From Candidatus Heimdallarchaeota archaeon (GTDB lineage: Archaea > Asgardarchaeota > Heimdallarchaeia > Heimdallarchaeales > Heimdallarchaeaceae), in contig DAOVER010000023.1 of assembly GCA_030668875.1 (NCBI GenBank), positions 24,173-56,172 on the forward strand: a stretch of DNA of 32,000 nucleotides, written 5' to 3'. The notes beneath the pieces are model-generated. The model saw only the letters and a program-made list of their open reading frames with translations. It ran no database searches and was not told where the DNA came from. Numbering within the stretch: position 1 is the stretch's first letter; the number at the start of each line of letters is the position of its first letter. Position numbers and translations under genes: made by a program. This document shows, in pieces, positions 22,266 to 23,075 of this stretch.

Positions 22266-23075
22266 GTGTCAATAGATGATTATTTAGATACTCTGCTTTC
22301 TGGCAGTTCTGATCCATCTAGTAAAGCGATAAAGAAATTGACAAAACTTTTAGAAAGTTTTGGGGCCATAATGGTCCAATCCACAGAGAGGATGGAGGAT
22401 TACATTAACACACTAGACGCGCGCATTTCCGTAATTGAGAGAAATATGGTTGTGCCTTCTTCAAGTCCTGTTGTAGGTACATCATCGTCTAGTCCAGCAC
22501 CTGCAAGAGCGTCTACTCCTGCAGCTTCTGGAGCACCTAATCTTTCAGGAGCACCTAATCTTTCAGGAGCACCAAATCTTAGTAGTGCCCCTTCTTCAGG
22601 AGGATCTCCTGCACCAGCGCCTAGTGGTGGCGGAGGTGGAGGTATATCAAATGCAGATTTAATGAAAGTAGCGGCAGGCTTAACAAAAACTCCTGAACAA
22701 CAGTCAAAAGAAATGCTTGATGCATCAACATTCAGTCCGTCTGGAGTAAGTGTTTCAGCTATTCAAGATGTTAAAGCAGGATTAACTAAAGTAGACCAAG
22801 ATGAACATAGAAGAGAAAGAGCTGCAGCATCTGGTGGATCAGATTCAATGCCCGCTTCTATGGCACTAAACATGGAAGTCAAGGATGCCCTGGCAAAGAG
22901 AAAATCGCGCTCTAAATCAGATGAAGATAGTGATGATGAAGATGATTTTGCTCCAACTCAAACTGCTCCTGCTGCACCTAAGCGTTCAACTAAACAGATG
23001 AAAGAAGCTCTACAAGGAGAATTAAGAAGCGCCTTCAGTAGTTTACTTGAAAGTGATACACAAGAAGAAGAGTAA
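22266..23075 (+). CDS. Putative WAVE/WASH-like actin regulator: BRK1-like coiled coil, low-complexity linker, 2x WH2-like, C-like helix, acidic stretch, terminal helix (269 aa)
   Basis: GTG start (MSIDDYLDTLL). The CDS itself is well supported (own TATA box and terminator); the functional call is inferred from motifs listed under findings. Confidence 0.65.
   Translation: MSIDDYLDTLLSGSSDPSSKAIKKLTKLLESFGAIMVQSTERMEDYINTLDARISVIERNMVVPSSSPVVGTSSSSPAPARASTPAASGAPNLSGAPNLSGAPNLSSAPSSGGSPAPAPSGGGGGGISNADLMKVAAGLTKTPEQQSKEMLDASTFSPSGVSVSAIQDVKAGLTKVDQDEHRRERAAASGGSDSMPASMALNMEVKDALAKRKSRSKSDEDSDDEDDFAPTQTAPAAPKRSTKQMKEALQGELRSAFSSLLESDTQEEE
22530..22583 (+). repeat. 3x 18-bp tandem repeat encoding (GAPNLS)3
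   Basis: ggagcacctaatctttca twice exactly, then ggagcaccaaatcttagt. Confidence 0.95.

Follow-up and report, generated by a model that had tools for sequence, protein, structure and literature searches.

The DNA analysed here (the window) is a stretch of 32,000 nucleotides from a Candidatus Heimdallarchaeota archaeon (GenBank assembly GCA_030668875.1, contig DAOVER010000023.1, positions 24,173 to 56,172 of the forward strand), which belongs to the lineage usually placed closest to eukaryotes. The gene under study lies on the + strand at 22257/22266-23075, is present in a single copy in the genome (92% complete) and encodes a protein with two short motifs that resemble the actin-monomer-binding WH2 domain and the part of VASP that binds G-actin (GAB). 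The protein has about 270 residues, is acidic (isoelectric point 4.78) and is largely disordered in the AlphaFold2 monomer model. From the N terminus, it consists of a coiled coil, an Ala/Pro/Ser linker with PNL repeats, the WH2-like motifs, an amphipathic helix with a basic patch, an acidic patch and a terminal helix. No Pfam model matches the protein, and no publication describing such a protein was found in the literature. Residues are numbered from ATG 22212 of the longest open reading frame (ORF; 22212-23075, 287 amino acids). The gene and the two motifs are located as follows (pLDDT, the predicted local distance difference test, is the confidence score of AlphaFold2):

22257..23075, + strand: gene; likely start TTG 22257 (MIHVSIDDY) or GTG 22266 (MSIDDY), not ATG 22212; stop TAA 23073-23075.
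22644..22709, + strand: WH2-like motif 1, residues 145-166; ends in LTKTPE, family consensus LQKAPE; AlphaFold2 helix 147-157, pLDDT ~56.
22731..22820, + strand: WH2-like motif 2 together with the conserved residues on either side of it (174-203); FSP.GVS..IQDV..GLTKVD.DEHR.ER.

An earlier sequence-only reading of the window had proposed two tandem actin-binding motifs of 16 residues at 22644-22691 and 22746-22793. Both are found exactly in the translation of 22644-22793 (+), where they form residues 145-160 and 179-194. The 34 residues said to separate them are the distance from start to start, and the spacer between motif 1 and motif 2 comprises 18 residues. The shared pattern is also present, with identity at 7 of the 16 positions including the run AGLTK. 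When residues 141-287 were shuffled, the identity of the best pair of 16-mers was reached in 11 of 500 shuffles and an exact 5-mer repeat was obtained in 44 of 2000. The repeat within this one protein thus exceeds chance only moderately, and together with the largely disordered character of the protein these values would agree with a chance or low-complexity feature devoid of a function of its own. We consider this explanation very improbable. It is contradicted by the homologues, in which invariant residues persist amid variable linkers and the same motif recurs in families that are otherwise less than 30% identical.

The close family of the protein is confined to metagenome genomes of the Heimdallarchaeaceae, where it is present in 25 of the 29 genomes of that GTDB family. 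In the alignment of 28 homologues, the residues L157, K159 and P161 of motif 1 and G178, I184, L191, K193 and V194 of motif 2 are invariant, and the linkers around the motifs differ freely in length and in sequence. A lack of conservation at the LTK[TV] position was named as one result that would refute the sequence-only reading: the Leu and Lys are invariant and the last residue is Val, Ala, Thr or Ile, and since this conservation occurs amid variable linkers, the reading is not refuted on this point. At the end of motif 1, only this genome has LTKT, where the majority of homologues have LQKAP; motif 2 ends in LTKVD, which is LKKVD in several homologues. Conservation therefore indicates that both motifs are real and under selection, inside one real gene; as to their type, they would be short linear motifs of the WH2 or G-actin-binding-site kind.

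The same motif was detected in five Heimdallarchaeia GTDB families, in one to four copies per protein and often with the endings LKKV, LKSV or LKKAP, and it recurs across families that share less than 30% identity elsewhere. A relative from the genus g5 has three motifs ending in LQKA, LQKA and LKKV, respectively. Three motifs are also present in the sister family, with the endings LKKV/LKKV/LKSV or LSKA/LKKA/LKKA. Further relatives have a single motif (LKKAP), or three or four, and one motif occurs in a family of the same class but of a different order. These alignments indicate that the copy number of the motif shifts by duplication. Tandem WH2 arrays likewise change their copy number by duplication. 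Among relatives of the sister family f2, proteins of 440-452 amino acids were observed with one LKAP-type motif, two copies of another repeat (MSQMQELKNAFSGGGDQSHL) and a long Lys-rich tail.

Two alignments of the motif were used, an earlier one (A3) and a later one of 31 motif instances (A8), both of which contain motif 1. In the consensus of A8, position 6 is hydrophobic, position 9 is small and hydrophobic, positions 11-12 are Gly, Ser or Asn, position 13 is always Leu, position 15 is Lys and position 16 is Val or Ala; Pro or Asp and acidic residues usually come next. The Gly, Ser or Asn residues, which are helix caps, directly precede the invariant Leu, and the Pro or acidic residues come after it. 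In the AlphaFold2 model of motif 2, the helix 181-190 stops at Gly190, the residues 191-195 (LTKVD) are non-helical and the next helix comprises residues 196-208.

The identification of the motifs as WH2 domains with LTK in place of LKK can be retained in part. It is favoured by the conserved Leu and Lys, by the canonical LKKV, LKSV and LKKAP of the relatives, by the position after a Pro-rich linker, by the occurrence in one to four copies and by the predicted succession of helix and coil. The assignment to the WH2 family itself is not supported, as neither the Pfam WH2 model nor a WH2 chain of the PDB was matched and the nearest sequence is the G-actin-binding site of VASP, not the WH2 of WASP or Spire. 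The comparators, which were checked in the PDB, were WASP (2A3Z), N-WASP, VopL, VASP GAB (2PBD) and thymosin beta-4. Between the invariant hydrophobic residue and the Leu we count 7 residues, compared with 6 in WASP, 5 in VASP GAB and 8 in thymosin beta-4; this spacing is inside the known range and is therefore no obstacle to a WH2-type reading. A language-model feature search with residues 141-287 placed WH2-bearing clusters first and second among the named clusters (score 0.77, taken as a lead only), and the same search with the relative P0058 returned no usable match.

The similarity to VASP concerns two elements. Aligned with hhalign, VASP GAB matched the motif profiles over 12-13 columns, with A3 at a P value of 4e-4 and a score reached by 2 of 180 shuffles. 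With the alignment A8, the match extended over 13 columns (P 2.8e-4) and its score was reached by none of 200 shuffles and by none of 200 random 21-mers from the genome. These matches are short, and the comparator was chosen post hoc. The second element is the VASP site that binds F-actin (FAB), whose sequence was confirmed in PMC10340426 and whose peptide is not in the PDB. It matched the basic amphipathic helix located after the motifs, with a P value of 1.2e-3 for the profile of the family alone (A6; score reached by 0 of 180 shuffles). When the end helices of the other Asgard proteins described below were added (A7), the match covered 17 columns with a P value of 1e-4, and neither 250 shuffles nor 250 random peptides reached its score. 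On this comparison, the likeness of the motif to VASP GAB and that of the basic helix to VASP FAB both exceed the level of shuffled controls, and the two elements follow each other in the same order along the chain. At the level of the whole protein, homology to Ena/VASP is not detectable by database search: the Pfam models EVH1/WH1 and VASP_tetra have no match on the window protein, and the profile of the terminal helix retrieved no VASP chain from the PDB and has no detectable likeness to the VASP tetramerisation domain.

From these data, the protein could quite possibly be an oligomeric, VASP-like actin assembly factor, which is our best, though tentative, reading. A number of results weigh against it. 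The VASP P values overstate the case because the comparator was picked after the sequences had been seen. Even at E values up to 10, the Pfam model PF02205 matches neither the protein, nor its 28 homologues, nor the relatives with LKKV or LKKAP, and a search of the PDB sequences with the motif profile A3 gave no WH2 chain and nothing relevant. The WH2 sequences of WASP and N-WASP and that of thymosin beta-4 align by hhalign with the LKK core of the motif only, and that of VopL does not align at all. As judged by sequence methods, none of which places the motifs in the WH2 family, formal membership of this family is not supported. An exhaustive hidden Markov model search of 1.84 billion representatives recovered 15 proteins, all of the same narrow family and none from a eukaryote. 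AlphaFold2 models the motifs with low confidence (pLDDT 56-67), their helix has a weak hydrophobic face (Ala, Val, Ile, Ser), and motif positions 2, 6, 9, 13 and 16 also suit a continuous heptad-like amphipathic helix. Finally, the gene neighbours have no cytoskeletal connection and provide no functional hint. Concerning the WH2 searches, such tests are weak in themselves, because a WASP WH2 query retrieves only WASP, N-WASP, VopL and INF2 from the PDB. A scan of the whole genome with PF02205 at E values up to 10 gave matches at two unrelated places, and not in this gene.

In the main rival reading, which we hold to be somewhat less likely, these conserved linear motifs or amphipathic helices would bind a partner other than actin, which could be another protein of a small-GTPase-linked pathway or a membrane, and their likeness to WH2 and GAB would be the convergence of a very short pattern. 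The heptad-like hydrophobic spacing suits a plain amphipathic helix, and a WH2 profile match is absent. Tetrapeptides of the LKK type are also frequent, and the ORFs of the genome contain a loosely defined form of the motif 265 times. A membrane is a poor fit for a protein of such a low isoelectric point (4.78), the motif region of which has a net charge of about -1. The Gly, Ser or Asn caps and the following Pro favour a helix followed by an extended segment over one long helix, and the collinear likeness to both actin sites of VASP exceeds that of shuffled controls.

The other parts of the protein are the following:

22269..22454, + strand: N-terminal helical/coiled-coil domain, residues 20-81; AlphaFold2 helix 37-79, pLDDT 82-85.
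22455..22640, + strand: disordered Ala/Pro/Ser/Gly linker with three SGAPNL units; pLDDT <50.
22848..22919, + strand: amphipathic helix, residues 213-236, with the basic patch KRKSR at its end; AlphaFold2 helix 215-235; alignments A6 and A7.
22920..22949, + strand: acidic patch DEDSDDEDDF, residues 237-246; contains Phe and no Trp.
22986..23072, + strand: terminal helix, residues 259-287; STKQMK..LQ..L..AF followed by an acidic tail; AlphaFold2 helix 260-284, pLDDT 80-82.

The N-terminal coiled coil could oligomerise the protein; a profile of the full-length protein retrieved only generic coiled-coil matches from the PDB sequences. In the linker, the SGAPNL units are encoded by a DNA tandem repeat at 22526-22580 (period 18, 3.1 copies). 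The PNL repeats may represent a distinct binding motif, for example for profilin. In proteins of the sister family, units of the type GGPNLGGAP[SR] or TPSGPNLGG are present in up to about 15 copies, and more distant relatives have polyproline at this place. The terminal helix contains Ser, Lys, Leu, Gln, Leu, Ala and Phe residues that are invariant across two families, and it has no informative match in the PDB or in Pfam. The match of its profile (A5) with S100-A1 in the PDB (E 0.011) was judged to be due to chance. We rejected an origin of the motifs as divergent copies of the terminal helix (hhalign probability 1.4%), and likewise the possibility that the basic helix is a further copy of the motif (weak likeness to the motif profile, probability 4%). 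The MAFFT alignment had set the basic helix over the third motif of some relatives; they are different elements, because relatives carry a third or fourth motif plus a separate basic helix, and because of the alignment A7.

The order of these parts (a Pro-rich region, two WH2-like motifs, an amphipathic helix and an acidic run with an aromatic residue) is also that of a nucleation-promoting factor of the WASP family, in which WH2, a connector helix and an acidic tail would activate an Arp2/3-like complex. The genome encodes an Arp-like protein (ORF of 490 amino acids on contig C29) and an ARPC4-like protein (171 amino acids, contig C34), and the N-terminal helix of two homologues from one genus matches CCDC53 (PF10152), a subunit of the WASH complex, with 26.9 and 25.5 bits for a cut-off of 24.6. 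The ARPC4-like gene is the single Arp2/3 subunit-like gene found, however, and the alignment to the WASP WH2 ends at the LKK core. The acidic patch has no Trp, and its aromatic position (Phe246) is not invariant, being Phe in most homologues and Ile, Leu or Ala in some; some relatives lack the patch or have poly-Gln or Lys-rich sequence in its place. Concerning the CCDC53/BRK1-type trimeric coiled coil, PF10152 does not match the window protein and reaches genome-wide only E values of 0.02-0.04 in two genomes, which leaves it as a lead. An Arp2/3-activating segment of this type is thus improbable, because of the missing Trp and of the limited likeness to CCDC53. In a homologue from the genus g4, a run of about 20 Gln was observed in place of the acidic patch, and part of the linker of this sequence consists of masked N.

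Contrary to the motifs, the N-terminal domain is widespread: its profile (A4) detected one copy in each of 196 of the 399 Asgard genomes, and no paralogue of this domain or of the terminal domain was found in the genome studied here. In three other families, the domain is part of a protein of about 155 residues composed of a coiled coil, a Pro/Ser-rich linker and an end helix E-L-K-x-L-F-x-R-R-R. The alignment A7 shows that the helix 213-236 of the window protein is the counterpart of this pan-Asgard end helix. Since the older module is shared and the LKK[AV] motifs are present only in Heimdallarchaeia, the motifs were presumably inserted there into the older module; an acidic patch and a further terminal helix appear to have been added as well in the family of the window protein. 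Proteins of about 415-435 amino acids, present in 114 of the 135 genomes of the largest family, have the coiled coil and the basic end helix at their C-terminal end. The N-terminal part of this fusion matches the Gtr1/RagA and Arf GTPase models (E 8e-11), so that a GTPase is joined here to a candidate cytoskeletal module. These GTPase-fused proteins carry no WH2-like motif, and the core job of the module therefore need not be the binding of actin monomers, a point in favour of the non-actin partner considered above.

Actin, profilins and gelsolins are credited to Asgard archaea in published work. To our knowledge, no Asgard nucleator or elongation factor has been described there. Two actins of the lokiactin type (378 residues; 536 bits to skeletal muscle actin) were found in the genome studied here. 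The Pfam profilin model has no match in the genome, a result that is uninformative since the controls were equally silent. Two two-domain gelsolins of 204 and 254 amino acids were also observed (contigs C23 and C80), with the inter-domain linkers FLKH and FLKS. In the solved structures of Loki and Heim gelsolins with actin, LKKT-like tetrapeptides (LKHV, LRRT, LKDV) at the corresponding place of the linker rest on the actin (PMC9433394; bioRxiv 10.1101/2025.11.30.690169). By homology, the WH2-type surface of actin would therefore already be used by proteins of this lineage itself.

If the protein is a VASP-like assembly factor, as we tentatively propose, its parts would act as follows. Oligomers would form through the N-terminal coiled coil and perhaps also through the terminal helix, and the Ala/Pro/PNL linker would be a flexible arm, perhaps recruiting profilin-actin. 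Each motif would insert a short amphipathic helix into the barbed-end cleft of an actin monomer and lay its L-x-K-V/A along the actin surface, and the amphipathic helix with the KRKSR patch would touch the filament. The oligomer would in this way collect several monomers beside a filament end, resulting in nucleation and/or elongation of filaments of the archaeon's own actin. On a wider proposal, the protein would be the first factor for actin nucleation or elongation from an archaeon, an oligomer that arose in Heimdallarchaeia when tandem WH2/GAB-type motifs joined an older pan-Asgard module of coiled coil and FAB-like helix, GTPase-fused in other Asgard lineages. The logic of Ena/VASP and WASP, in which actin assembly is linked to GTPases and fed by profilin, would then have had an archaeal forerunner in this protein or have been invented here independently. 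As a whole, we regard this wider proposal as rather doubtful.

The question addressed by this gene is how actin filaments are started and steered in Asgard protrusions. It is a good but unproven candidate for the missing archaeal actin-assembly factor, and a directly testable one, as the protein is small, soluble and single-copy, with defined motifs and obvious point mutants. If it binds actin, the WH2/GAB-FAB handling of actin either predates eukaryotes or arose twice; in this case, the GTPase-fused relatives would hint at how control by small GTPases became coupled to actin assembly.

Two elements flanking the gene were read from the DNA:

22231..22239, + strand: TATA-like box TTTTTATAT, an element inferred from the DNA only, within the apparent 5' extension of the ORF.
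23079..23105, + strand: T-rich tract 3' of the stop codon.

The ATG at 22212, the annotated start of the ORF 22212-23075, is probably not the true start. In the majority of the 56 homologues, the protein begins at the counterpart of ORF residue 16 (TTG 22257) or 19 (GTG 22266), and the TATA-like box lies about 20-30 nt 5' of these starts. The ATG of the longest ORF is located 45-54 nt 5' of the start used by most homologues (22212-22265). The extra hydrophobic 'residues' of this extension overlap the TATA-like box, and several homologues in the databases share the extension; the overlap suggests that gene callers retaining the longest ORF append a false N-terminal extension. The T-rich tract is a plausible archaeal terminator. 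No RNA data were found for the genome, for which four DNA runs from one marine-sediment study are listed.

The order threonine aldolase, target gene and metallo-beta-lactamase/beta-CASP gene is kept in all five genera of the family. In the sister family the gene context is different, with a tRNA-intron endonuclease upstream. The downstream neighbour at 23162-25309 (+) encodes a metallo-beta-lactamase/beta-CASP protein of 715 amino acids, whose N-terminal extension of about 300 residues has no family match. Elsewhere in the window, the product of the gene at 18643-20181 (+) resembles class II aminoacyl-tRNA synthetases, has tRNA_bind_4 as its N-terminal domain (E 2e-22) and may be of the O-phosphoseryl-tRNA synthetase type, and an ORF of 1439 amino acids is present at 12477-16796 (+).

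The protein can finally be compared with the known systems that it resembles. With the tandem-WH2 nucleators Spire, Cordon-bleu and Vibrio VopL/VopF, it has in common two to four motifs on short flexible linkers and, putatively, an oligomerising element. This likeness, including that to the dimeric VopL, is a functional analogy; there is no sequence relationship, as illustrated by the VopL WH2. In the WH2 domains of WASP, N-WASP, WAVE and WIP, as is predicted for the motifs here, a short amphipathic helix with a Gly cap leads into L-[KTQ]-K-[VTA], often then Pro, and the domains likewise occur in tandem after a Pro-rich region; the WASP WH2 reads LNKTP where the family described here has LTKTP and LKKAP. 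However, the LL..I helix signature is missing from the motifs, and the spacing from helix to Leu is one residue off that of WASP. In the Asgard two-domain gelsolins, the LKKT-like motif links folded domains, whereas the motifs of the window protein stand free in a disordered protein. The pan-Asgard family with coiled coil, Pro-rich linker and end helix has its N-terminal domain in common with the window protein, and likewise the helix E[LV]K..L..[KR]R[RK]. Outside Heimdallarchaeia, its members are about 155 amino acids long or fused to a Rag/Arf-like GTPase, and they are devoid of the LKK[AV] motifs, of the acidic patch and of the extra terminal helix. Compared with Ena/VASP, the window protein has no EVH1 domain and has instead a coiled coil of unrelated type at its N terminus; where VASP has one GAB, two to four motifs resembling it are found here, the linker consists of PNL repeats without polyproline in the window protein, and an acidic patch is inserted. 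The succession is that of the Ena/VASP EVH2 region: a proline-type linker, an LxKV motif, about 20 residues further on an amphipathic helix with a cluster of Arg and Lys, and then a terminal helix.
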